Assembly: GCA_964371705.1 (NCBI GenBank)
Contig: CAYJNH010000001.1
Coordinates: 1-62,100 of the forward strand
Reading direction: 5' to 3'
Length of the DNA stretch: 62,100 nt
Source of the DNA: an uncultured Muribaculaceae bacterium
Lineage (GTDB): Bacteria; Bacillota_I; Bacilli_A; RF39; UBA660
Shown here piece by piece: positions 31,398 to 60,337 of this stretch (its first letter is position 1; each line of letters begins with the position of its first letter). A program made the position numbers and the translations under genes. The notes under the pieces are model-generated. The model saw only the letters and a list, made by a program, of their open reading frames with translations, did not search any database and had not been told where the DNA came from.

Positions 31398-31474
31398 GGG
31401 GAATTAGCTCAGTTGGCTAGAGCACCTGCCTTGCACGCAGGGGGTCAAGGGTTCGAGTCCCTTATTCTCCACCA
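31398..31474 (+). tRNA. tRNA-Ala (anticodon UGC), CCA encoded
   Basis: Cloverleaf folded by hand: acceptor GGGGAAU/AUUCUCC with the G3:U70 identity pair, anticodon loop CUUGCAC, T-loop GGTTCGAGTCC, and a 3' CCA. Confidence 0.95.
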
Positions 31475-43718: not shown

Positions 43719-44750
43719 ATGATAAATCAAATAATTTTGTTAATAATATTAATATGCATAAATGCATTTTTTGCCGCTACTGAAATAGCATTCATATCAA
43801 TAAATGATATGAAATTTAAACAAAAGGCAAAAGAAAAAGATAAAAAAGCAATTGAAATAATGAAAATTCTTAAAACTCCTAGTGCTTTTTTAGCCACTAT
43901 TCAAATTGGAATAACTCTAGCGGGTTTTCTATCATCAGCTTTAGCATCGGAAGCTTTTGCAGAAAAATTAGCTCCAGTTTTACACAATATAATGCCGTTT
44001 ATAAGCTTAAGTACATTTAATGCGATATCTATAATAGTGGTAACTATTGTACTATCGTTTTTTATGCTTTTATTTGGTGAACTTATTCCAAAAAGAATAG
44101 CTATGAAACATGATGAGTACATAGTATACAAAAGTATAAATATTATTAAATTTATTTCAATTATTGCCAAACCATTTGTAGCTCTTTTAACTAGTATAAC
44201 TGATGGTGTTTCAAAAAAATTTGGTGTACAAGAATATGAAGAAGAACACATTACAGAAGAAGAAATTAGAATGATTATTAATCAAGGTAAAGAAAAAGGC
44301 GCTATTAAAAGATACGAACAAAATTTAATAAATAATGTGTTAGGTTTCAATGATAAAAAAGTAATAGAAATAACTATTTTAAAAGAAAATGTAGTAACTC
44401 TTGATATAAACTTGACTATAGATAAAACTTTATTGATTTTAAAAAAAGAAGGTTATAAATATAGTAGAATACCAGTGTATAATGATGATGAAAATACAAT
44501 AATAGGTATTTTATATACTAAAGATTTATTAAGAAATATAGATAAACCAGATATGATAATAAATAAAATTATATATGAGCCTTTATTTGTTTCATCAAAT
44601 GATTATGTTAATGTTGTATTCAATAAACTAAAAAGAAATAAAAAACAAATTGCTGTAGTACTAGATAATAACAAATACATGGGAATTGTATCCATGGAAA
44701 ACGTTTTAGAAGAAATTGTAGGAGATATAGTAGATGAATATGGAAACTAA
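43719..44750 (+). CDS. CNNM/TlyC-family transporter (DUF21 plus CBS pair), lacking the CorC_HlyC C-terminal domain
   Basis: N-terminal 4-TM DUF21 domain (FFAATEIAFIS), then a tandem CBS region. The protein ends shortly after the CBS pair. Confidence 0.75.
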   Translation: MINQIILLIILICINAFFAATEIAFISINDMKFKQKAKEKDKKAIEIMKILKTPSAFLATIQIGITLAGFLSSALASEAFAEKLAPVLHNIMPFISLSTFNAISIIVVTIVLSFFMLLFGELIPKRIAMKHDEYIVYKSINIIKFISIIAKPFVALLTSITDGVSKKFGVQEYEEEHITEEEIRMIINQGKEKGAIKRYEQNLINNVLGFNDKKVIEITILKENVVTLDINLTIDKTLLILKKEGYKYSRIPVYNDDENTIIGILYTKDLLRNIDKPDMIINKIIYEPLFVSSNDYVNVVFNKLKRNKKQIAVVLDNNKYMGIVSMENVLEEIVGDIVDEYGN

Positions 44751-47343
44751 AAAATATTATAAAGAAAGTGTAGAGCAAATTTTAAATGAATTAGAGAGTA
44801 ATAAAAATGGATTAACAGAAAAAGAAATTAAATTAAGATTAGAAAAATATGGATCTAATAAATTAGAAGAAAAGAAAAAGAAAAGCAGTATTATAAAATT
44901 TTTTGAACAATTTAAAGATATAATGGTGTTAATATTAATATGTGCAGCAGTATTAAGTTTCATAATATCTTTAAGGGAAAAAGAGTCTTTTTTAGAAAGT
45001 TACATAATATTAGCCATAATTATATTAAATGCAATTTTAGGTTTCATTCAAGAAGCTAAAGCTGATAAAGCAATTGATGCATTAAAAAAAATGTCTACTA
45101 CAAGTGTAAAAGTTAAAAGAAATAATGAAATAAAAAAAATTAACGTTCAAGAGCTTGTTCCAGGAGATATATTAATTTTAGAAGCAGGAGATTATGTCCC
45201 AGCTGATGCAAGGTTATTTTATGTATCATCCCTTAAAGTAGAAGAAGCTTCATTAACTGGAGAATCGGGTTCAGTTGAAAAGAATTTAGAATTAATTAAA
45301 GAAGATGTAATAATTAGTGATAGAAAAAACATGATATATTCAGGTAGTAGTGTAGTATATGGAAAATGTGAAGCAATTGTTACATCTACAGGTATGAATA
45401 CAGAACTTGGAAAAATAGCACTATCATTAACAACAGAAAAAGAAGTAAAAACATTACTTCAGATAAAAATACATAATATAAGTAAAGTTCTTAGTTATAT
45501 CATAGCAGTAATAGTAGTAATTATGCTTTTAATAGGTATAGTTAATGATATGGATATTATGCATGTATTTATCATGGCAATATCACTGGCTGTAGCTGCT
45601 ATACCAGAAGGGTTACCTACGGTTATCACAGTAATATTATCCTTAGGTATGACAAAGCTTGCTAAAAAAAATGCAGTAGTACGTAAAATATCATCTGTAG
45701 AAACTTTGGGTAGTACACAAGTTATAGCCTCAGATAAAACAGGTACAATTACAAAAAATGAAATGACTGTAAGAAAATTTTATATAGATGAAAAAATTGT
45801 TGATAGTGCAGATAATAAAATGCTTAATAAAATCATGTGGCAATGTATAGATGTAACTAAAGATAAAAATAAATATCTTGGTGATCCTACAGAAATAGCT
45901 TTATATAAATATGTAGAAAAAAACAATATGAATTTAATTGAAAAACACGAAAAAATATTTGAGTTTCCTTTCGATTCTGACCGTAAATTAATGAGTGTAA
46001 TAACTAAAGATAATGAAGGGGTAGAAGTTCTTACCAAAGGAAGTTTAAATAGTATGCTTGCTATATGTAAAAAAATATTAGTTAATAATAAAGAAGTTAA
46101 TTTAACAAATGCATTTATAGATAAAATATTAGAAGCAGAAAAAAATATGTCTGATAGTGCTCTTAGATGTCTTGCTTTTGGTTATAAAAAAATCAAAGAA
46201 AAAAAAGAATATAATATAAAAGAAGTTGAGAGTGATTTAGTTTTAGTAGGTTTAGTTGCAATGATAGATCCTCCAAGAGACTCAGTAAATAACGCTATAA
46301 AAACTTGTTTGCAAGCAGGCATTAAACCTATTATGATAACTGGAGATAGTATAAATACAGCTAAAGCAATAGCTAAAGAAGTAGGAATTTATAAAGAAGG
46401 AGATTCAGCTCTTGAGGGAATCACTTTGGAAAAAATGAGTGACACAGATTTAAAAAAAGCTGTAAATAATGTGGTAGTATATGCAAGAGTAACGCCAGAG
46501 CATAAACTTAGAATTGTTAAAGCTTTAAAAGCAAATGGTAAAGTTGTAGCAATGACAGGTGATGGAGTAAATGATGCACCAGCACTTAAAGTATCCGATG
46601 TTGGTGTTGGTATGGGAATTACTGGTACAGAAGTATCAAAAAATGTTTCAGACATAGTTTTATTGGATGATTCGTTTAATACAATAGTAGTAGCAGTAGA
46701 AGAAGGAAGAAATATTTTTGAAAATATTAGAAAAGCTATATGTTATTTATTAACTGCTAATATAGCAGAAATAATAATAGTTTTTGTAGCAATGATTTTT
46801 AACGCTAGCATATTTTTACCAATACATTTGCTATATATTAATTTGGTTACTGATTCCCTTCCAGCAATAGCACTATCTTTTGAAAAAAATGATAAAGATA
46901 TTATGAAAAGAAAACCAAGAAAAAATACAAATACACTTTTTACACCATTATTAATATCAAGAATAGCTTTATCAGCAATATTAAAATCAATTGCAGTATT
47001 GGCATTATATTTTACATCTAATATAATATTTGGCCCAGAAAAAAGTACAACAATTGCATTCTTAGGATTAATATTATTAGAAATGACATTTGCGCTTACT
47101 AGCCGTAATCTATATAAAAATATATTTAATAAAGAATTTTTATCAAATAGAATTATGAATTTATCAATGATCATTTTAATAATACTTCAATTAATACTAT
47201 TTTTAACACCTGCTAGAACATTGTTTGAAATAGTTACATTAAATTTTAAAGAATTTATATACATATTAGTATATGTTATTGCAGTGTTTGGATTAAATGA
47301 AGTCATAAAACCATTTTTATTAAGATCATTTAAAGATGAATGA
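44734..47343 (+). CDS. P-type cation-transporting ATPase (Ca2+-ATPase-like, P2 type)
   Basis: TGES, DKTGTIT, TGD and GDGVNDAPALK motifs, and 10 TM helices. 17-nt overlap with the upstream gene. Confidence 0.92.
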   Translation: MNMETKKYYKESVEQILNELESNKNGLTEKEIKLRLEKYGSNKLEEKKKKSSIIKFFEQFKDIMVLILICAAVLSFIISLREKESFLESYIILAIIILNAILGFIQEAKADKAIDALKKMSTTSVKVKRNNEIKKINVQELVPGDILILEAGDYVPADARLFYVSSLKVEEASLTGESGSVEKNLELIKEDVIISDRKNMIYSGSSVVYGKCEAIVTSTGMNTELGKIALSLTTEKEVKTLLQIKIHNISKVLSYIIAVIVVIMLLIGIVNDMDIMHVFIMAISLAVAAIPEGLPTVITVILSLGMTKLAKKNAVVRKISSVETLGSTQVIASDKTGTITKNEMTVRKFYIDEKIVDSADNKMLNKIMWQCIDVTKDKNKYLGDPTEIALYKYVEKNNMNLIEKHEKIFEFPFDSDRKLMSVITKDNEGVEVLTKGSLNSMLAICKKILVNNKEVNLTNAFIDKILEAEKNMSDSALRCLAFGYKKIKEKKEYNIKEVESDLVLVGLVAMIDPPRDSVNNAIKTCLQAGIKPIMITGDSINTAKAIAKEVGIYKEGDSALEGITLEKMSDTDLKKAVNNVVVYARVTPEHKLRIVKALKANGKVVAMTGDGVNDAPALKVSDVGVGMGITGTEVSKNVSDIVLLDDSFNTIVVAVEEGRNIFENIRKAICYLLTANIAEIIIVFVAMIFNASIFLPIHLLYINLVTDSLPAIALSFEKNDKDIMKRKPRKNTNTLFTPLLISRIALSAILKSIAVLALYFTSNIIFGPEKSTTIAFLGLILLEMTFALTSRNLYKNIFNKEFLSNRIMNLSMIILIILQLILFLTPARTLFEIVTLNFKEFIYILVYVIAVFGLNEVIKPFLLRSFKDE

Positions 47344-49660: not shown

Positions 49661-49735
49661 TTGTCATAAATTTGAAAAAAATAATTGATAAAAAAAATAA
49701 AGTATGTTATTATTTTATAGTAGGTGAGGTATAAA

Positions 49736-50347
49736 ATGGGTGTAATAAAAAAAATAATAATAGGTGTGTTAATAACAGTGTTTTTTGCAATAGCCATAAC
49801 TATGTCAATATTGCTATTAAATACAAACAAAGAATTTGGAGTAACTCAGTTTGAAAATTCTTCTTTATTGATAATAGATGGAGAGATATCATCTCCTAAA
49901 TATGAAAAAGGTGATTTAGTAATAACTGAAAAAAAACCTTTAGATAGTATAAATGTTGGAGATGAAGTTTTTATATTTAAAATCAATGACAATGATAAAA
50001 TAAGTATAGAATTAGGTTTTGTAGGAGAAGTATTTGTTGATGAAGATGCAATATCTTTAGAAAATGGAGCAACTTATTCTTCAAAATTTATAGCAGGAAC
50101 AGCAACAGATGTATATAGTGGGCTAGGAACAATAGTGAGTTTATTACAATCTACATGGATATTCTTTTTCTTAATAGTAGTACCATGTTTCTTGATTTTT
50201 ATATACCAAATATATTCATTAATAGTAGAAATTAAATTTGGCGGAGATGAACCATATACAAAATCTGAAAGAAAAGAAAAGTCAGAAAAAAAAGAAAGTA
50301 GACCTAAAAAAAGCAAAACGACAACAACAAGAAGTAGTAGATATTAA
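49736..50347 (+). CDS. SipW-like pseudo-peptidase (S26B fold and topology, catalytic Ser/His absent)
   Basis: It has an N-terminal TM helix, a beta-rich domain, a C-terminal TM helix and a basic tail. GEISSPKYEKGDLVITEKK...VGDEVFIF aligns with GSMEPKYEVGDVLISIEK...KGDAISY of the SipW at 55533. GSMEP, the TH(R/E) His and KGD.N are all missing. Confidence 0.6.
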   Translation: MGVIKKIIIGVLITVFFAIAITMSILLLNTNKEFGVTQFENSSLLIIDGEISSPKYEKGDLVITEKKPLDSINVGDEVFIFKINDNDKISIELGFVGEVFVDEDAISLENGATYSSKFIAGTATDVYSGLGTIVSLLQSTWIFFFLIVVPCFLIFIYQIYSLIVEIKFGGDEPYTKSERKEKSEKKESRPKKSKTTTTRSSRY

Positions 50348-50459: not shown

Positions 50460-52853
50460 ATGAGGTCTAGTGGTAGTACTAATAAAGTGTTAAAAAAAGC
50501 TACTAACATAACATTAGATATATTAATTTTTATATTTGGGATTATATTGCTAGTTTCCTTATATAACGTAGTACAAGTTAAAATACTGGGAAATGACTAT
50601 TCCAGTTTTTTTGGTTATACAATATTTGAAGTCCAAACTGGAAGTATGGAACCGGAAATTAGTGCAGGAGACTGGATAATAGTAAAAGAAAAAAAGAGTT
50701 TTGCTCTTGATGATGTAATAACGTTCCAACAAGATGGTAATTTTATAACTCATAGAATAATAGAAAAGTACAGTGACACCTTTATTACAAAAGGAGACGC
50801 TAACAACTCAGAAGATGATCCAATTAACGCTGATCAAATCGTGGGAGAAGTCGTTAGTGTAATACCGCTATTTGGATTATTTAGGATGACACTGTTTAAT
50901 CCATATATATTAATAGCACTTATAATAACAATATACATATATAATATGAAATCAATAAAAAAAGGAGGTATAATAAAGGTGATAAATAAAGTAAAAGAAT
51001 TTTTCGCAAAATTTGCAAAAGGTAAAGAAAAAAAAGAAACAGAAGACTTTTTCAAAGAAGATAACAAGAAATCATTTGAAAATATACCTTCACAACCAAG
51101 GTTTAGAGACTATGAAGAAAGATTAGAAGATCATACTAAACACAACGTAGACGAAGAAGAGGAAATCAAAGAAGAAAAAATAATAGATGAAGATAAAGAA
51201 GAAGAATTAAGTAAAACAATGTTCTTCAGAATGGTATCAGTTGATGAAGATGAAAATGAAAACAAGGTTGTTGAAGATTTTGAAAATGACCAACAACCTA
51301 TAATAACAGGAGATGAACCATTAGATACATTTGAAACTAAAGAAGAACTTAATGTTTTTGAAACTGAAGATAAAGAAGAAGCAAATGTATTCGAAAGTGA
51401 AATAGACGATGATTTTGAAAAAACAGTAAATCAATATGAAGAGCCAAAAAGGGAAACAGATTCATTTATTATCAGCACTGATGATGGAGATTATGAGTAT
51501 GAAAAACCAGAAGAAGAAATAGATGAAGAAATAGAAGTTGAAGAAACAAAAAATGAAATTGAAGTTGAAGAAGAAGTTGAAGAAACAAAAGAAGACAAAG
51601 AAGATGAAGCAAAATTTACTTTAGAAATGATTTTCAATAAACCAGAATATAAAAGAAGCAAGAACATCATAGCTAGAACAATGGCTATTAAAGAAGAAGA
51701 AATAAATAAAACAATAGATTTTATATTTGGTGAAAGTAAAATGCTTGCAAATGAAGCTACGATAAAAAAATCTTTAATCAAATCATATATAGAATCTAAA
51801 TATTACAATATTTTTAGTGAAAAAGTAGCATTACTAGAAACTAAAAAAACAGCTCAAAAGAAACCGAAATATGCAAATTTAAGCAGTATAAGTTTAATTA
51901 GTGAAAAAAATGGATTTGATAGAGCATACGCTACAAGAGTAAAAAAAGTAATAAACAGAGTGTCATATGCTCTTGAAGAAGATAGTGCTAAACTAGCAAG
52001 TATGTATTCAGGTAATGATAAAACTTACGAAGAAAAACTAGTAAAATATTCAAGTTTAATATTGCTTATTTCTAAATTAGAATACTTAGTTGATTTAGAT
52101 ATAAACATGAGAAGTAAAAAGATATTATATACAAAAGAAATTATTAAATTTATAAGTGATTATAATATAGAAAACGATAATATAGAGTACACTGTTAAGG
52201 AAATCATACATTCTCAAAAGCATTTTAGAAGTGCTTCAAAATATTTCTTGGATAGACTTAATACTGAAATGTTTGAATTAATATACCATCCGTTTAAAAC
52301 GGATAAAGCTAAATTTTTATTAGATTTAAAACATAATATAAGTTTCTCGCAAGTTTATAGTGATAGAGTAGTAGATAAAGCATATCAAGAAGGAATAGTT
52401 GCAGAAGATAAATTAAATGTATTATTAACTCTTCTTCAAGCAAGATTGTCACACGATATGCTAACTAGTGAGTTTGTTAATGAATATGTAGTATTGCTTC
52501 CAGATTCATTATGTTTAAAAGATACAAAATTTGAAAGATTATTTAAACAAAATAATGAAGAATACGCTAAGAAAAATATAGTATATTTAATAAGTTATGA
52601 TATTTTTATGAAAAAAGCTGCTAGCATTAAAAATCTAAGGAAAAATGGATTTAGAATAGCAATGTATATTAATGATGATACAAAGTTTGCTAGTAAAAAT
52701 AAAACAGGAATAGCATTAGCAGAATACATATTCATAGATAAACAAACAAAAAAAATAATAGAGTTAGAAAAATTGGTTTTTGACAATTTTAAAAACAAAA
52801 TAATAAAAGACGATATTGATAATAAATTAGAAATTAAGAAGGAGGAAAGATAA
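50460..52853 (+). CDS. SipW-type (archaeal/ER-type, S26B) signal peptidase I fused to a cytoplasmic extension of about 620 aa
   Basis: Residues 1 to about 165 carry a TM helix, QTGSMEPEISAGDWIIV, ITHRII, TKGDANNSEDDP and a second TM helix. An acidic low-complexity linker follows (IEVEETKNEIEVEEEVEETKEDKEDE), then an uncharacterised domain of about 400 aa. Confidence 0.8.
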   Translation: MRSSGSTNKVLKKATNITLDILIFIFGIILLVSLYNVVQVKILGNDYSSFFGYTIFEVQTGSMEPEISAGDWIIVKEKKSFALDDVITFQQDGNFITHRIIEKYSDTFITKGDANNSEDDPINADQIVGEVVSVIPLFGLFRMTLFNPYILIALIITIYIYNMKSIKKGGIIKVINKVKEFFAKFAKGKEKKETEDFFKEDNKKSFENIPSQPRFRDYEERLEDHTKHNVDEEEEIKEEKIIDEDKEEELSKTMFFRMVSVDEDENENKVVEDFENDQQPIITGDEPLDTFETKEELNVFETEDKEEANVFESEIDDDFEKTVNQYEEPKRETDSFIISTDDGDYEYEKPEEEIDEEIEVEETKNEIEVEEEVEETKEDKEDEAKFTLEMIFNKPEYKRSKNIIARTMAIKEEEINKTIDFIFGESKMLANEATIKKSLIKSYIESKYYNIFSEKVALLETKKTAQKKPKYANLSSISLISEKNGFDRAYATRVKKVINRVSYALEEDSAKLASMYSGNDKTYEEKLVKYSSLILLISKLEYLVDLDINMRSKKILYTKEIIKFISDYNIENDNIEYTVKEIIHSQKHFRSASKYFLDRLNTEMFELIYHPFKTDKAKFLLDLKHNISFSQVYSDRVVDKAYQEGIVAEDKLNVLLTLLQARLSHDMLTSEFVNEYVVLLPDSLCLKDTKFERLFKQNNEEYAKKNIVYLISYDIFMKKAASIKNLRKNGFRIAMYINDDTKFASKNKTGIALAEYIFIDKQTKKIIELEKLVFDNFKNKIIKDDIDNKLEIKKEER

Positions 52854-54364
52854 TGGATACAGTTTTAAGATTTTTATACGAATTTTTTGATAATTTTGTG
52901 TCAGGACTACAATCTATTTGGGAAGGTATAGTAGGGATATTTAATTTTGGAAATTATGTCAAAATAATTAATAATTATAGCAAAGAGTTCGAAGGACCGG
53001 AATGGCTATTCATTTTAATAGCTGTAGCATTAATCCTAATTATTCTTGGTTTAATAGGATTTGTAATATTTATTTATGTAAAAAGATTTATAAGAAATAA
53101 AACACACAAAGTAAGTAATGAATCTCTTTTAGAAGAGGTAGATAAACTAAATAATCAAGTTAGAAAACTAATGAAAGAAAATGCTGAATTGATGGCAATG
53201 AAAGTATCTCAATTAGGATTAAATCCGGATGATGAAGATGGTGTCAACCCAGAAGAAGAAGTAGATGAAGAAACTAAAGAAAATGCACATAGGTTCCCTA
53301 AACTTGAACTTATAGATGAAGAGTTTAAGGATTATACAGTTCAAAATTATAATAACAATTTTACATTAGAAGAATTAACAGATAATTTAAGAGCATTTTC
53401 TGCAAGTACATTAAAGCTTTATTATGATTATTCTTTATTAAGAACATTTATTGCTGGTTTAGCATCAAGTAGATTGATAATACTACAAGGTATATCAGGA
53501 ACAGGAAAAACATCATTAGCATACGCTTGGGGTAAATTTGTAGCAAATGATTCAGTAGTAGCATCTGTTCAACCTTCATGGAAAGATAAAACAGAATTTT
53601 TAGGTTACTTCAATGAATTTACTAAAAAATTCACAGAAACGGAAGCGTTAGGAGAAATTTATGCAGCTAGTTTTGATGATAATGTACATACGATAATACT
53701 AGATGAAATGAATATAGCAAGAGTAGAGTATTACTTTGCAGAAATGTTATCAGTTCTTGAAATACCAGCAAGAAGCGAGTGGGTAATAGAATTAGTAACA
53801 AGTGGGTGGCCACATGATGCAGCAAAACTTGACAATGGTAAATTGTTATTACCAGGTAACTTATGGTATATAGGAACAATCAATAACGATGATTCTACAT
53901 ACATGGTAACAGATAAAGTTTATGATAGAGCAGTTCCAATAGATATAAATAAAAAAATCAAACCATTTGATTCTCGTAAACAAGATGCAGTTCCAATAAA
54001 TGCAACATATTTAGAAGGATTATTTGCTGAAGCAATAGAAAAAAATCCTGTTTCTAAAGATGGATTAGATAAATTAGCTTTGATTGATGATTATGTTATT
54101 AAACATTTTAGAATAGCTTTTGGTAATCGTATTATGAAACAATTGACAACATTTGCTCCAGTATATGTAGCATGTGGTGGTCAAGAAATTGAAGCGATTG
54201 ATTACTTTATTGCAAGAAAAATATTAAGAAAATTTGAACAATTAAATATTGCGTTTATACGTGATGAGTTAGATCCATTTATCTCATTTTTAAATAAAGA
54301 ATGTGGTAAAGGAGTTATGAAAGAGTGTATTGAGTTTATAGAGTATATTAAAAAATCAATATAG
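52853..54364 (+). CDS. membrane-anchored McrB-family AAA+ NTPase
   Basis: One TM helix (WLFILIAVALILIILGLIGFVIFIYV, with a KRFIRNK-positive cytoplasmic side) is followed by a coiled coil. McrB-type motifs then appear in order: LQGISGTGKTS, IILDEMNIARVEYYFAEMLSVLE, NLWYIGTINNDDSTY and DKVYDRAVPIDI. The start overlaps the upstream stop by 1 nt. Confidence 0.75.
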   Translation: MDTVLRFLYEFFDNFVSGLQSIWEGIVGIFNFGNYVKIINNYSKEFEGPEWLFILIAVALILIILGLIGFVIFIYVKRFIRNKTHKVSNESLLEEVDKLNNQVRKLMKENAELMAMKVSQLGLNPDDEDGVNPEEEVDEETKENAHRFPKLELIDEEFKDYTVQNYNNNFTLEELTDNLRAFSASTLKLYYDYSLLRTFIAGLASSRLIILQGISGTGKTSLAYAWGKFVANDSVVASVQPSWKDKTEFLGYFNEFTKKFTETEALGEIYAASFDDNVHTIILDEMNIARVEYYFAEMLSVLEIPARSEWVIELVTSGWPHDAAKLDNGKLLLPGNLWYIGTINNDDSTYMVTDKVYDRAVPIDINKKIKPFDSRKQDAVPINATYLEGLFAEAIEKNPVSKDGLDKLALIDDYVIKHFRIAFGNRIMKQLTTFAPVYVACGGQEIEAIDYFIARKILRKFEQLNIAFIRDELDPFISFLNKECGKGVMKECIEFIEYIKKSI

Positions 54365-55532: not shown

Positions 55533-56105
55533 ATGGAAAGAAAAAAAGAAAACAAAATATTCTCAATTATAAAATTAATATTCAAAATTATAATAATATT
55601 ATTTGTTGTTTCATTTATTTTAATGGTAGTGCTTCAAAGGGTAAGTAAAAATGAATTTTCTTTCCTTAATATAAGATTATTTAGTGTACTAACAGGTAGT
55701 ATGGAACCTAAATACGAAGTAGGAGATGTCTTAATAAGCATAGAAAAAGAACCAGAAGATATAAAAAAAGGTGATGCGATAAGTTATCTAGGAAAAGAAG
55801 GTACTTTTGATGGCAAAGTTGTAACACACGAAGTAATAGATATAGAAACAGGGGAAGATGGCAAGTTATTATTTACAACTAAAGGTATAGCAAATACCGC
55901 AATAGATCCGATAGTTTCAGAAGATCAAGTATACGGAGTTGTTTTATTTGAAGCTGTTCCTTTAAGTTTCATATATGGAATAATCAGTAAACCACTGGGA
56001 ATGTATTTACTAATTATAGTACCTATTTTATTCATAATTGGGTATGAAATTGTAAGTAGAATGTTAGAAAAAGAAGAAAAAAGAAGAAGTAATTATAGAG
56101 ATTAA
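55533..56105 (+). CDS. sipW: signal peptidase I, SipW type (S26B)
   Basis: N-terminal TM helix, LTGSMEPKYEVGDVLI, VTHEVIDI, TKGIANTAIDP and a C-terminal TM helix. 190 aa. Confidence 0.85.
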   Translation: MERKKENKIFSIIKLIFKIIIILFVVSFILMVVLQRVSKNEFSFLNIRLFSVLTGSMEPKYEVGDVLISIEKEPEDIKKGDAISYLGKEGTFDGKVVTHEVIDIETGEDGKLLFTTKGIANTAIDPIVSEDQVYGVVLFEAVPLSFIYGIISKPLGMYLLIIVPILFIIGYEIVSRMLEKEEKRRSNYRD

Positions 56106-56119
56106 ATGGAGGGATACAA

Positions 56120-57346
56120 ATGAAAATAATGTCAATAAGCAAATTAAAAGTAATGGTATTAATATTTGCAGTTCTTGCATTTGTGTCCGTTACATATGCA
56201 TGGTTTACTTATACTACTGAAGTTGGAACAAAATTAAATGTTGATGTTATGGCTTGGAATGTAGAATTTACAGATGAATCAACATCAGTAACAAATAGTA
56301 TAGTAATAACATCTGCAGAAATTTTTCCTGGCATGGATACAATAACAGAGTATATAGAAATAAATAACTATGGAGATGCTGATGCAAAACTAACTACTTT
56401 TGTTGAGTCAGCAAGAATATTTGATCAAGATTTATATTTAGTTGATCCAGTTAGAACAAGTGAACAATTAGAAGATGCTCTAGCACATGATTATCCATTT
56501 CATATTGATATTGTATTAAGTGATAATTATTTGAAACATCAAACAGGAAAAAGTGTTTTTGAAGTATCGATTTCATGGCCTCTTGATACAGATAATGATA
56601 AAGAAGATAGTAAATGGGGTTTAGATGCATACAATTTTGCAGTAAGTGAAAACGATAAACTTTTATTAGATTCATCATATGAAATTAGAAATCCTATAGA
56701 GGTTGTAATATCTGTAACTGCAGAGCAACAGATTGAAACTTCAGATATAGCCTCTGATAAAGATTATAGATTAGGTGATACAATTTTATTTGATGTAATA
56801 ACAAATAAATCTTGTACTACAATAAGTTCAAGTTGTTTAAAAACTAATGTAATAGATATAGATAATAAATATTCAGATTCAACAGTAACGCTACTTCCTG
56901 ATATAAAATCGACTTATGCTACTAGTACTTTTACAGGGTATAATGCAATTTTAGCTAATACAGTGGCCACTTGGTCAGTAAATACAAGAGCACTAGAAAC
57001 AGATGATTTACTTAATATAATTTCAAAAGATATAGTAACAAGTTATATTGAAAGAGAAAATTTTTCAGATATAATTATTGGATCAACGAATTATGAAAAT
57101 AGAGCAGATAAAAAAATAAATAGTACAATAGCTTATGGAGGTAATTTTACATTTTTAAATGATAAATTTAATTTCTTATATACAGCTAACTGTGTTTGGT
57201 CAAATACACAGTATGGTGTAGATAGTTCATTTGCATTAAAAGATATAGATGCAACAAGAAGTCAATTATATTCGTTAAGCAACACAGAATACTGTAAAGT
57301 AGTTCCAGTAATAATAGCAGACAAAACAGCATTAAGCACTATATAA
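56120..57346 (+). CDS. TasA/camelysin-like secreted protein with SipW-cognate signal peptide (408 aa)
   Basis: The signal ends in ...FVSVTYAWFTYTTEV (compare TasA ...GTWAAFND). EYIEINNYGDADA is an N.G strand motif. Last gene of the plus-strand operon. Confidence 0.6.
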   Translation: MKIMSISKLKVMVLIFAVLAFVSVTYAWFTYTTEVGTKLNVDVMAWNVEFTDESTSVTNSIVITSAEIFPGMDTITEYIEINNYGDADAKLTTFVESARIFDQDLYLVDPVRTSEQLEDALAHDYPFHIDIVLSDNYLKHQTGKSVFEVSISWPLDTDNDKEDSKWGLDAYNFAVSENDKLLLDSSYEIRNPIEVVISVTAEQQIETSDIASDKDYRLGDTILFDVITNKSCTTISSSCLKTNVIDIDNKYSDSTVTLLPDIKSTYATSTFTGYNAILANTVATWSVNTRALETDDLLNIISKDIVTSYIERENFSDIIIGSTNYENRADKKINSTIAYGGNFTFLNDKFNFLYTANCVWSNTQYGVDSSFALKDIDATRSQLYSLSNTEYCKVVPVIIADKTALSTI

Positions 57347-57386: not shown

Positions 57387-58010
57387 TTAAATTACCTGTT
57401 CAAATTTTAAATTAGCATTTATAGTAATAACTAAATCTTCTAGTGAAGCTTGATGTCCAACAGTAGTATCTACTTCATCAGTCATAGTGTTAGTATCTCC
57501 ATCATACCATTCAAAGTAAACTCTAATAACAAATTTTTCATGCTTATAATTTTCTATACCCTTATTAAATATCATTGTGTTTTCTATTACTCCACCAGTT
57601 ATAGAAACTCCATTAAGTGGATTACTAGTAGAAGCTCCGTTTTCAAGAATTTCGTATTTATTTATTATAAAATCTGGTACTTCAGTGCTTACAGCAGATA
57701 ATTCAATGTTATACCTAAATGATAAATCAACATTAGTTGGGTCAACTTCTATATCAAAGTATCCAGTTGATGTAGGAGCAAGTTTGTTGCTACTTACATT
57801 ATTATTAGTTTCAATAGTAGGAGTAAATTCAATAGTAGAAGTAGAATTTTGAACTATATCCGTTTCATTAACTAGTATTTGCCATCTAGATAATGATACA
57901 TCTACATTACCAGTTGTATCAGCAACATACCGAGAATATGTACTACTTATCATGCTAAGAGTAATTACCATCGATACAAACAAAAATAATAATCTAACTC
58001 GTTTTTTCAT
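57387..58010 (-). CDS. TasA/camelysin-like secreted protein, short form (207 aa)
   Basis: The signal ends in ...MISSTYSRYVADTTGN. All-beta composition. Shared late motif IRVYFEWYDGDTN. Confidence 0.55.
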   Translation of the reverse strand: MKKRVRLLFLFVSMVITLSMISSTYSRYVADTTGNVDVSLSRWQILVNETDIVQNSTSTIEFTPTIETNNNVSSNKLAPTSTGYFDIEVDPTNVDLSFRYNIELSAVSTEVPDFIINKYEILENGASTSNPLNGVSITGGVIENTMIFNKGIENYKHEKFVIRVYFEWYDGDTNTMTDEVDTTVGHQASLEDLVITINANLKFEQVI

Positions 58011-59011: not shown

Positions 59012-60337
59012 ATGCAAAAAAGAAACGCAAAACAAAAAAGAAACGTAAGAAATTTAGCTGCAGTAACAACGTTAACTGCGATTATCTTGATAGTTTCAAC
59101 TTATGCATGGTTTATTGGTCTTGACGAAGTAAGAGTAGAAGATTTTACTGTTAAAATCGCTGCTGTTGATAGTTTAGAACTATCACTTAACGGAGCTGAT
59201 TGGTCAGATACAATAAATATTGATCCAGATACAATTGAAGATGTAACTGGAACAAGTGCATATGTAGGAAACACAAATTCATGGACTGGTAGACTTGATA
59301 CTGACACTGACGGAGATGGTGTAAATGATCCAGTTGGATTAATACCAGTGTCATCAGTAGGTCAAATGGACACTGCTTCTTCAAGATTAGTAATGTATGA
59401 AAAAGCTAGTTTAAGTCCAACACCACCATATGGAACAAGATTAATGGCAAGTCAAGTACAAAATCATGTAGATGCTGATACTGGTACTGCTGGTCACCAA
59501 CCAGTAGATGAAGTAGATGGATATATTGCTTTTGACTTATTTGTTAAAAATTATACTGGAGCACAATATATAGAAGCTTTAAATCAAGCTGATGAAGAAG
59601 CTATTTACTTAATAGACGAATCAAATGTAGCCGTTACATTAACAGGAGATAACGGTGGAACAACTGATGCTGCAGAAGATGCAATTAGAGAAGCTTCAGG
59701 AATCGAAAATTCTGTTCGTGTAGCATTTGCTCAAGTAGGACGTGTTAAAGGTACTGAAACTGATGCTGCAACTATTACAGGAATTTCTTGTACAAGTGAA
59801 GCTGGTGTAGTTACTGGTATTTGTAGAACTGCAAGTATTTGGGAACCAAATGATACTGCTCACGTAGACGGTGCAATTAATTACTATAATAATAACTGTG
59901 GTTATAGAGGAACTGCAACTGCTCCAACTGGTGCTGGGTTTACAGCTAAAGGTTGTGTAGCAATAGCTGATGGAACTGCTGCTCCAACATATGCAGTAGC
60001 AACAGATATTTCATCTGACATGGATGTTAACATTTATGATGGTGGATATAACGGTTTAGCTGTACCAGAAGTACCAGCTACAATGCCTGATGGAACAACT
60101 GCTTATCCAAATGCTGGAGATGCAACTTTAGAAGCTTTTGATACATTTACAGATAGTGAAAAAATATTAAATGCTGATGAAAGACCATCAATTATGACTT
60201 TAGCACCAAACAGTATTACAAAAATAAGAGTATATATTTACTTAGAAGGTCAAGACGTAGATAACTATGACTGGGCTATCGAAGGAAAACAAATAACTGT
60301 TGACTTTGGATTCAGTAAACAAATATATGAAGCATAA
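59012..60337 (+). CDS. major TasA-like secreted protein 1 (441 aa) with SipW-cognate signal
   Basis: The signal ends in ...IILIVSTYAWFIGLDEV. Motifs include GYIAFDLFVKNYTGAQYIE, ENSVRVAFAQVGRV and ITKIRVYIYLEGQDVDNYD...ITVDFGFSKQ. Codon usage is visibly shifted to GCT/GGT/ACT/GTA/CGT. Confidence 0.7.
   Translation: MQKRNAKQKRNVRNLAAVTTLTAIILIVSTYAWFIGLDEVRVEDFTVKIAAVDSLELSLNGADWSDTINIDPDTIEDVTGTSAYVGNTNSWTGRLDTDTDGDGVNDPVGLIPVSSVGQMDTASSRLVMYEKASLSPTPPYGTRLMASQVQNHVDADTGTAGHQPVDEVDGYIAFDLFVKNYTGAQYIEALNQADEEAIYLIDESNVAVTLTGDNGGTTDAAEDAIREASGIENSVRVAFAQVGRVKGTETDAATITGISCTSEAGVVTGICRTASIWEPNDTAHVDGAINYYNNNCGYRGTATAPTGAGFTAKGCVAIADGTAAPTYAVATDISSDMDVNIYDGGYNGLAVPEVPATMPDGTTAYPNAGDATLEAFDTFTDSEKILNADERPSIMTLAPNSITKIRVYIYLEGQDVDNYDWAIEGKQITVDFGFSKQIYEA

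Follow-up and report, generated by a model that had tools for sequence, protein, structure and literature searches.

Within the 62,100-nt window analysed here (contig CAYJNH010000001.1 of assembly GCA_964371705.1, positions 1 to 62,100), the gene at 50460-52853 encodes a SipW-type signal peptidase that continues, behind its second transmembrane (TM) helix, into a long cytoplasmic extension ending in a folded C-terminal module. The second lobe of this module is predicted to have the fold of EAL domains and has lost their catalytic residues, and the gene is directly followed by one for an McrB-like GTPase. We lean towards the reading that the module is an EAL-derived pseudoenzyme adaptor tying the SipW peptidase to the McrB-type GTPase within a CoCoPALM-type system. 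The conserved gene cluster around it probably points to an undescribed, energy-coupled processing of secreted fibre or pilus proteins. The fusion itself is a new architecture, in which a known type of peptidase is joined to an EAL-derived pseudoenzyme within a system that has been named and not yet characterised.

The open reading frame (ORF) starts with an ATG behind GGAAGG and is the sole long frame in its interval. Its N-terminal part matches TIGR02228, the endoplasmic reticulum/archaeal-type signal peptidase I family, over aa 20-161 (E 9e-21, 74.4 bits against a cutoff of 51.85) as well as Pfam Peptidase_S24 (E 3.9e-6). With 69.4 bits it falls below the cutoff of 190 for the Bacillus SipW equivalog NF046067, so by the NCBI criterion the protein is SipW-like and not an orthologue. 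In analogy to B. subtilis SipW we take Ser62 (GSM), His98 (THR) and Asp113 (GDAN) to be the catalytic residues. Their conservation in the family alignment is 90% or more, and they align with those of the canonical paralogue in the cluster; judged from these residues, the peptidase should therefore be active. Hydropathy analysis places TM segments at ~aa 13-44 and 127-163, on either side of the catalytic domain. As the N-terminus ahead of the first helix is basic (net +4), the positive-inside rule predicts a cytoplasmic N-terminus, a peptidase domain outside the cell and a return of everything after aa ~163 to the cytoplasm.

This extension begins with a Lys-rich segment and an acidic low-complexity linker, in which the sequence EVEETK occurs twice (aa 359 and aa 372). 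Sequence and length of the linker are poorly conserved among homologues. It carries a short linear motif (Table 1), a permissive pattern of which is found in 60 of 72 fusion ORFs with 1-3 copies each (the match in locus L036 looks spurious) and in which T253 and R257 are nearly invariant. The anatomy given in the preliminary description of this DNA, i.e. a SipW peptidase followed by a Lys-rich segment, a Glu/Asp-rich stretch with EVEETK repeats and a folded domain, is in accordance with hydropathy, composition and the structural model. In its N-terminal 163 aa the protein agrees with B. subtilis SipW and TIGR02228 in fold family, the Ser/His(/Asp) set and the two TM helices, and the gene likewise lies in an operon with secreted proteins. 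B. subtilis SipW, in contrast, has ~190 aa, like the separate copy at 55533-56105, whereas the fusion adds a cytoplasmic extension of 634 aa and its cluster encodes putative substrates with no detectable similarity to TasA or camelysin.

A scan of one genome per GTDB species yielded 139 loci, 80 of which were kept for further analysis. All are from metagenome-assembled genomes (MAGs) labelled Bacilli, Mollicutes, Tenericutes or Erysipelotrichaceae, some of these names evidently being wrong placeholders. The kept loci hold 72 uninterrupted fusion ORFs of 605-823 aa, and some 70 species-level MAGs of uncultured Bacilli retain the fusion. Using the C-terminal 413 aa as a query we obtained 42 homologues, nearly all of 620-714 aa and most with an N-terminal Peptidase_S24 domain. 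Orthologues thus keep the fusion on which the preliminary description had built its proposal.

AlphaFold2 modelling of aa 385-797 with the family alignment gave a predicted local distance difference test score (pLDDT) of 83 and a predicted template modelling score (pTM) of 0.83. In this model a helical lobe (aa ~385-598) is followed by a β-hairpin and five parallel, helix-flanked strands. The α/β lobe modelled alone (aa 595-797) reached a pLDDT of 82 and a pTM of 0.80, and the antiparallel first hairpin typical of EAL domains is present in both models. Foldseek comparison of the whole module with the PDB placed EAL domains at ranks 1-16 (best E 2.9e-3), while for the lobe alone, searched against 350,542 chains, ranks 1-30 were all EAL domains (best E 1.4e-4). 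These matches include Bd1971, LapD, FimX, MucR, BifA, PdeA, MorA, RocR, RbdA, YahA, DosP, PA3825 and a Listeria EAL domain, with query-normalised template modelling scores of 0.40-0.58 and a root mean square deviation (RMSD) of 5-7 Å over 161-230 aligned columns. Other TIM barrels appeared from rank 31 onwards with scores of ~0.25-0.3. Since the top matches are all EAL domains, the EAL-like layout that had been recognised by eye in the last ~200 aa finds support at the level of the predicted fold.

At the level of sequence profiles the same claim found no significant support. Searches of the whole fusion against Pfam, NCBIfam, PADLOC and PDB sequences revealed nothing besides the peptidase, and a profile of 67 C-terminal module members returned noise only from the PDB (a TPR design, Nup88 and Cas7, E>0.3). 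Using hmmscan, PF00563 was not matched by any of the 67 members, even at E<=1. We further compared the family by local hhalign with seven EAL domains from the E. coli K-12 genome (PdeH, PdeK, PdeG, PdeL, PdeR, PdeC and BluF), and this profile check was not significant either (P 0.028, probability 1.8%). The sole local match aligns the VYLISYD...GFRIAMY block with ExxE...G..alDD. Greedy extension of this alignment is collinear over 193 columns and follows the EAL block order of YQP, GLI helix, ExxE, G-x-x-x-DD, KxD and EGVE. All five sequence blocks that had been likened to EAL motifs are thereby reproduced, in an alignment that is not statistically significant.

In this low-confidence collinear alignment the canonical EAL positions (E and R of EALxR, N, ExxE, DD and K of KxD) are all replaced, reading a variable residue/H-N/P/I/Y-I/F, and an acidic residue near the EGVE position is the sole one to remain. 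The lobe model stops after the seventh strand (aa ~781-784 of 797) and has no equivalent of the last β/α unit, so that the unit with the QG(F/Y) aromatic motif is absent. Both the loss of every catalytic residue and the C-terminal incompleteness of the domain had been anticipated from the sequence by eye.

Taken together, the α/β lobe is very probably derived from an EAL domain by shared ancestry and has diverged past profile detection. The missing sequence-level signal in Pfam, PDB profile and hhalign comparisons, the weak Foldseek E-values and the high RMSD would also suit a generic, truncated TIM-like α/β scaffold whose likeness to EAL domains reflects convergence or model bias. That origin is improbable, as each of the 30 best matches among all chains searched is an EAL domain and other TIM barrels score far lower, the EAL-specific antiparallel first hairpin is present and the greedy alignment reproduces the EAL block order without a break in collinearity.

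In the preliminary description the degenerate domain was proposed to be a sensor that could bind cyclic di-guanosine monophosphate (c-di-GMP). LapD is a TM protein in which a cytoplasmic, catalytically dead EAL domain has control over a protease whose target is a surface adhesin, while FimX couples such a domain to a pilus-assembly nucleoside triphosphatase. The lobe shares with both of them, in our models, the fold and the loss of catalysis. Structures of LapD (3pju, 3pjt, 6pwj/k) and FimX (4ag0, 3hv8/9, 4afy) are among the best Foldseek matches, the architecture of the fusion parallels that of LapD by analogy, and the neighbouring partner is a guanine-nucleotide enzyme. All this would suit a degenerate receptor for c-di-GMP or another guanine (di)nucleotide that acts as a LapD/FimX-like inside-out switch of the peptidase or of fibre assembly. 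We consider such a receptor rather unlikely. FimX and LapD keep most c-di-GMP contacts, whereas in the collinear alignment the canonical metal and nucleotide contact positions of the lobe are replaced, and the strand with the QG/aromatic motif is missing from the truncated barrel. The lobe also differs from LapD and FimX in that it has no GGDEF partner domain and no Pfam EAL match, and in that the protease is part of the same polypeptide.

Residues that are invariant in the lobe across the superfamily, including free and differently fused forms, are F605, F629, S634, K640, E649, D650, L659, Y676, K687, K690 and G730. They are located on strand 3 and on the helices after strands 2 and 3, none of them at an EAL catalytic or nucleotide position, a pattern to be expected of a protein interface or a new ligand site more than of a c-di-GMP pocket. 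Pfam detected no GGDEF domain in the fusion or its 67 module members. A crude motif scan of 1.42 Mb from these genomes, a weak test as it covers syntenic neighbourhoods only, found no GGDEF, DDFGTG or AEGVE motif. Judged from alignment and models, canonical c-di-GMP sensing by the module is thus probably not its role.

The constant partner of the module, which is missing from the preliminary description, is the McrB-like GTPase together with a DUF2357 protein and not the peptidase as such. We determined gene order by tblastn of the window proteins against the 80 kept loci, counting only loci with room on the contig. The order is invariant: a dead SipW paralogue, the fusion, the 503-aa McrB-like gene, a 379-aa DUF2357 gene, a 190-aa SipW gene, a gene for a 408-aa protein and, on the opposite strand, one for a 207-aa protein. 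The McrB-like gene directly follows the fusion in 67/67 loci with a median gap of 24 nt, and the DUF2357 gene (60/60), the second SipW gene (58/58) and the 408-aa gene (53/53) are just as constant. In the window the last fusion codons AAG-GAG-GAA double as the Shine-Dalgarno (SD) sequence of the McrB-like gene. In many homologues a conserved 'GGE' at the C-terminus may, by the same token, stem from an embedded ribosome-binding site and have no function in the protein.

Motifs of the 503-aa protein comprise a Walker A (GISGTGKT), a Walker B (ILDEMN) and the signature GTINNDD, which align with McrB including GT(I/M)N. E. coli McrB is the sole PDB match of the family profile (2e-5, aa 192-402). 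The family holds more than 8000 clusters at 90% identity, whose named members are annotated as hypothetical or mis-named DnaC. The source databases offered no names for the proteins studied here. Among our loci it is strongly conserved, with a mean column identity of 73% and a median identity of 62% compared with 32% for the module. The ~45 residues before its TM helix are near-invariant (window 52853-53100; M1, R6, F7, Y9, E10, F11, F15, G18, G25, Y35 and Y42). Such a stretch is unusual for a simple anchor and may be an extracytoplasmic or interfacial functional element. None of the invariant columns of the DUF2357 family contains a conserved D...(D/E)xK set; from its sequence the McrBC-type pair therefore appears to be nuclease-less.

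The association with the GTPase persists where the peptidase is not fused to the module. An HMM (hidden Markov model) of the EAL-like lobe identified 376 proteins at E<=1e-3 among 1.84 billion representatives. Besides fusions of 600-870 aa, these include a large group of unfused, free proteins (~320-335 aa) made up of the helical and EAL-like lobes without a TM helix, as well as forms with other N-terminal anchors. One 616-aa protein (P0137, lineage L088-L090) carries linker and module on the dead SipW paralogue in place of the active one. For four unfused or otherwise fused proteins, a gene for a TM-McrB-like protein comes directly after the module gene in all six contigs read (L086-L091). 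The same order, a 508-aa gene and then a DUF2357 gene, was read from gene length and Pfam only on three more contigs (L092-L094), which belong to a near relative of the free protein. L086 and L092 have a separate SipW orthologue of 253 aa, encoded two genes upstream, and their clusters lie beside tsaE-tsaB-rimI-tsaD. That three independent architectures share one constant neighbour is the strongest available evidence for a joint action of the module and the GTPase/DUF2357 pair. The lineage whose ~325-aa module is free (L086 11414-12942; L092 14136-17664) has a giant gene behind the cluster, the 2641-aa product of which is perhaps a surface protein.

A large clade of NxD-motif McrB GTPases was named CoCoPALM in one paragraph by Bell et al. 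(eLife 2024, PMC11090510), with its description deferred. Neither an EAL-like domain nor a fusion of peptidase and module is mentioned in the text or supplements of that article. We found no later paper on CoCoPALM, and literature searches for SipW+EAL, RF39+TasA, PDC-M26 and McrB+signal peptidase+TasA returned nothing relevant. The cluster described here shares with CoCoPALM an McrB-family GTPase, the DUF2357 partner and nearby genes of the signal peptidase family. The N-terminal TM helix, the coiled coil and the N-N-D-D signature of its GTPase may be further common features. In the signature N344, N345 and D346 are invariant and D347 nearly so, which fits NxD plus a second D and also reads as NxxD; HMMER places NNDD ungapped on NTAD. 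The TM helix and a heptad-like segment are present, and hmmscan of 29 GTPase members gave no FtsB/DivIC match. The cluster thus fits the definition by its McrB family, DUF2357 protein and peptidase association, and is consistent with it in the NxD motif and FtsB homology. The EAL-like domain and the peptidase fusion set it apart from the published description, and the module appears to be an unreported CoCoPALM component.

Proteins encoded at the end of the cluster are candidates for the substrate. The secreted or anchored proteins have a common S/T-Y-(A/S)-(W/R)-(F/Y) motif (TLAWF/TYSRY/TYAWF-like) at the end of their hydrophobic segment, and in the products of 56120-57346, 57387-58010 and 59012-60337 this anchor-end motif resembles SipW-cognate signal peptides. 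The downstream secreted proteins matched neither TasA, camelysin or a pilin nor any other Pfam or PDB family, which is why we call them putative substrates only.

These features suggest a fusion that works at both ends across the membrane, tying an outer cleavage or assembly step to an inner GTP-driven or GTP-gated machine. The external SipW domain would presumably cut the N-terminal anchors off the secreted proteins of the cluster, while the acidic tether with its conserved motif would keep the two-lobed adaptor at the cytoplasmic side of the membrane. There the adaptor may dock on the membrane-anchored McrB-like ring and its McrC-like activator, and the binding or hydrolysis of GTP could serve as a gate or a drive for substrate cleavage and filament assembly. 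Another option is that the peptidase recruits the motor to export sites. SipW is usually viewed as a small autonomous maturase of fibre subunits, McrBC as a DNA restriction motor and EAL domains as c-di-GMP enzymes or receptors. Here one invariant operon, widespread among uncultured gut Bacilli with small genomes, joins a SipW peptidase, an McrB-type GTPase and an EAL fold. Should the proposed coupling be true, extracellular filament assembly would be controlled or powered across the membrane in a new manner, and the cluster would give the first concrete, testable component list for a system named in 2024 and never described. The lobe is moreover a clear case of the EAL fold being reused in a pseudoenzyme that sequence profiles no longer detect.

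Several points weigh against the module being such an adaptor. The EAL relationship is read from predicted structures with modest scores and large deviations, and every sequence-profile test for it, i.e. the PDB profile, Pfam in the module members and hhalign, was negative. Neither the helical lobe nor the linker motif has been assigned a role. Adjacency and translational coupling are circumstantial links between module and GTPase. Because no substrate match was found among the downstream secreted proteins, neither to TasA/camelysin nor to a pilin family, "fibre or pilus" derives from SipW biology and the CoCoPALM label. Finally, the weak PADLOC match to PDC-M26A leaves room for a role in defence.

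A more far-reaching version, which we put forward tentatively and hold to be doubtful, makes the module an unrecognised core subunit of CoCoPALM. It would sense a guanine nucleotide in the cytoplasm or the nucleotide state of the McrB-like ring and, through the SipW tether, gate signal-anchor cleavage and filament polymerisation. If so, a restriction-enzyme motor and a dead c-di-GMP phosphodiesterase would have been combined into a GTP-powered pathway of fibre assembly under inside-out control.

With 1e-34 the GTPase matches PDC-M26A, a candidate system of PADLOC, and the CoCoNuTs, which are the nearest of its relatives to have been described, are predicted to act in defence (PMC11090510). On these grounds the cluster might be an anti-phage or conflict system of the McrBC/CoCoNuT kind with the SipW fusion as its membrane sensor or effector. 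We regard this as quite unlikely, given an identical gene order in at least 67 species-level genomes, the very strong conservation of the GTPase noted above, the housekeeping surroundings (argS in the window and its closest relatives, tsaE/tsaB/rimI/tsaD in L092) and the absence of a nuclease or other effector domain from Pfam, PADLOC and invariant-column checks.

An artefactual origin of the long ORF, through a frameshift, a misassembly or the joint reading of two genes, can be dismissed on the conservation of the fusion across genomes: one close relative (L005, 1132-3354) has the gene split into 373-aa and 265-aa ORFs, whereas the 72 uninterrupted ORFs come from independent assemblies, including those of the closest relatives (763-823 aa in L001-L004 and L008). 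The split in L005 is either an isolated pseudogene or a MAG assembly error. In L004 tblastn had shown half of the protein only, and the ORF actually measures 798 aa. An internal start that would give a free module in the window was considered and rejected, as no SD+ATG precedes the helical lobe or the folded module. A 263-aa fragment of L005 corresponds to the NCBI entry P0001.

Table 1 Features of the fusion gene and its cluster in the window.
Feature	Position	Strand	Remark
Dead SipW paralogue, 207 aa, two TM helices	49724..50347	+	Ser and His columns replaced; upstream in most loci
Whole fusion gene	50460..52853	+	797 aa, stop included; SipW-type signal peptidase and cytoplasmic module
TM helix 1 (~aa 17-40)	50508..50579	+	hydropathy, charge
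Extracytoplasmic peptidase domain (~aa 41-135)	50580..50864	+	TIGR02228, conserved columns
Codons of Ser62; His98; Asp113	50643-50645; 50751-50753; 50796-50798	+	
TM helix 2 (~aa 140-161), predicted to bring the chain back to the cytoplasm	50877..50942	+	hydropathy
Lys-rich juxtamembrane segment, aa 165-215, net +6	50952..51104	+	charge count
Acidic low-complexity linker, aa 216-384 (169 aa), 44% D+E, net -56	51105..51611	+	
Short linear motif of the linker, EELSKTMFFRMVSVD, aa 248-262	51201..51245	+	family pattern [DE][DE]L[SDE]KTxx[FY]Rx[IV]xV[DN]
Predicted all-helical lobe, aa 385-598	51612..52253	+	AlphaFold2 model; no recognisable relative
Predicted EAL-fold α/β lobe, aa 599-797	52254..52850	+	AlphaFold2, Foldseek, hhalign; catalytically dead, ends after strand 7
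Translational coupling signal	52835..52855	+	SD AAGGAGG within the last fusion codons; stop/start overlap TAATG
McrB-like GTPase, 503 aa	52853..54364	+	N-terminal TM ~aa 45-81; coiled coil ~aa 88-120
DUF2357 (McrC N-terminal-like) protein, 379 aa	54386..55525	+	PF09823 E 6.5e-8, 32.5 bits against a cutoff of 23.3
Canonical-length SipW-type signal peptidase, 190 aa	55533..56105	+	TIGR02228 E 2e-25
Putative secreted substrate, 408 aa, N-terminal anchor ending ...TYAWF	56120..57346	+	no family match
Putative secreted substrate, 207 aa, N-terminal anchor ending ...STYSRY	57387..58010	-	no TasA/camelysin match
Two N-terminally anchored cluster genes, 241 aa and 441 aa	58269..60337	+	conserved; 441-aa gene at 59012-60337, its paralogues farther downstream in relatives

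The cluster holds three SipW-fold genes, at 49724-50347 (dead), 50460-52853 and 55533-56105. The product of the first is a pseudo-peptidase with a possibly chaperone-like function. SipA/LepA of Streptococcus pyogenes are inactive signal-peptidase-like pilin chaperones of Gram-positive pili. The 49724-50347 product is similar to them in that it keeps the SipW topology and has lost Ser and His. It differs in being of the ER/SipW and not the LepB type, and no sortase or LPXTG pilin was detected. The genes for the 241-aa and 441-aa proteins, together with paralogues of the 441-aa one, are found immediately downstream in the window and in the loci closest to it; in more distant loci they lie elsewhere, often upstream. 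The 408-aa protein contains four invariant cysteines. A promoter scan gave 82 sites against 99 expected and is uninformative in such AT-rich DNA.

TGA serves as a stop codon in the window, in accordance with the standard code 11. The P-type ATPase gene at 44734-47343 (+) ends in TGA and overlaps the preceding gene at 43719-44750 (+) by 17 nt. Among the nearest MAGs (L001-L005, L008 and others) many records bear the title 'uncultured Muribaculaceae bacterium'; with a GC content of 23-30% and a Bacilli/Mollicutes-like gene content, these labels look like placeholders or errors. A lone tRNA-Ala(TGC) is located at 31398-31474.

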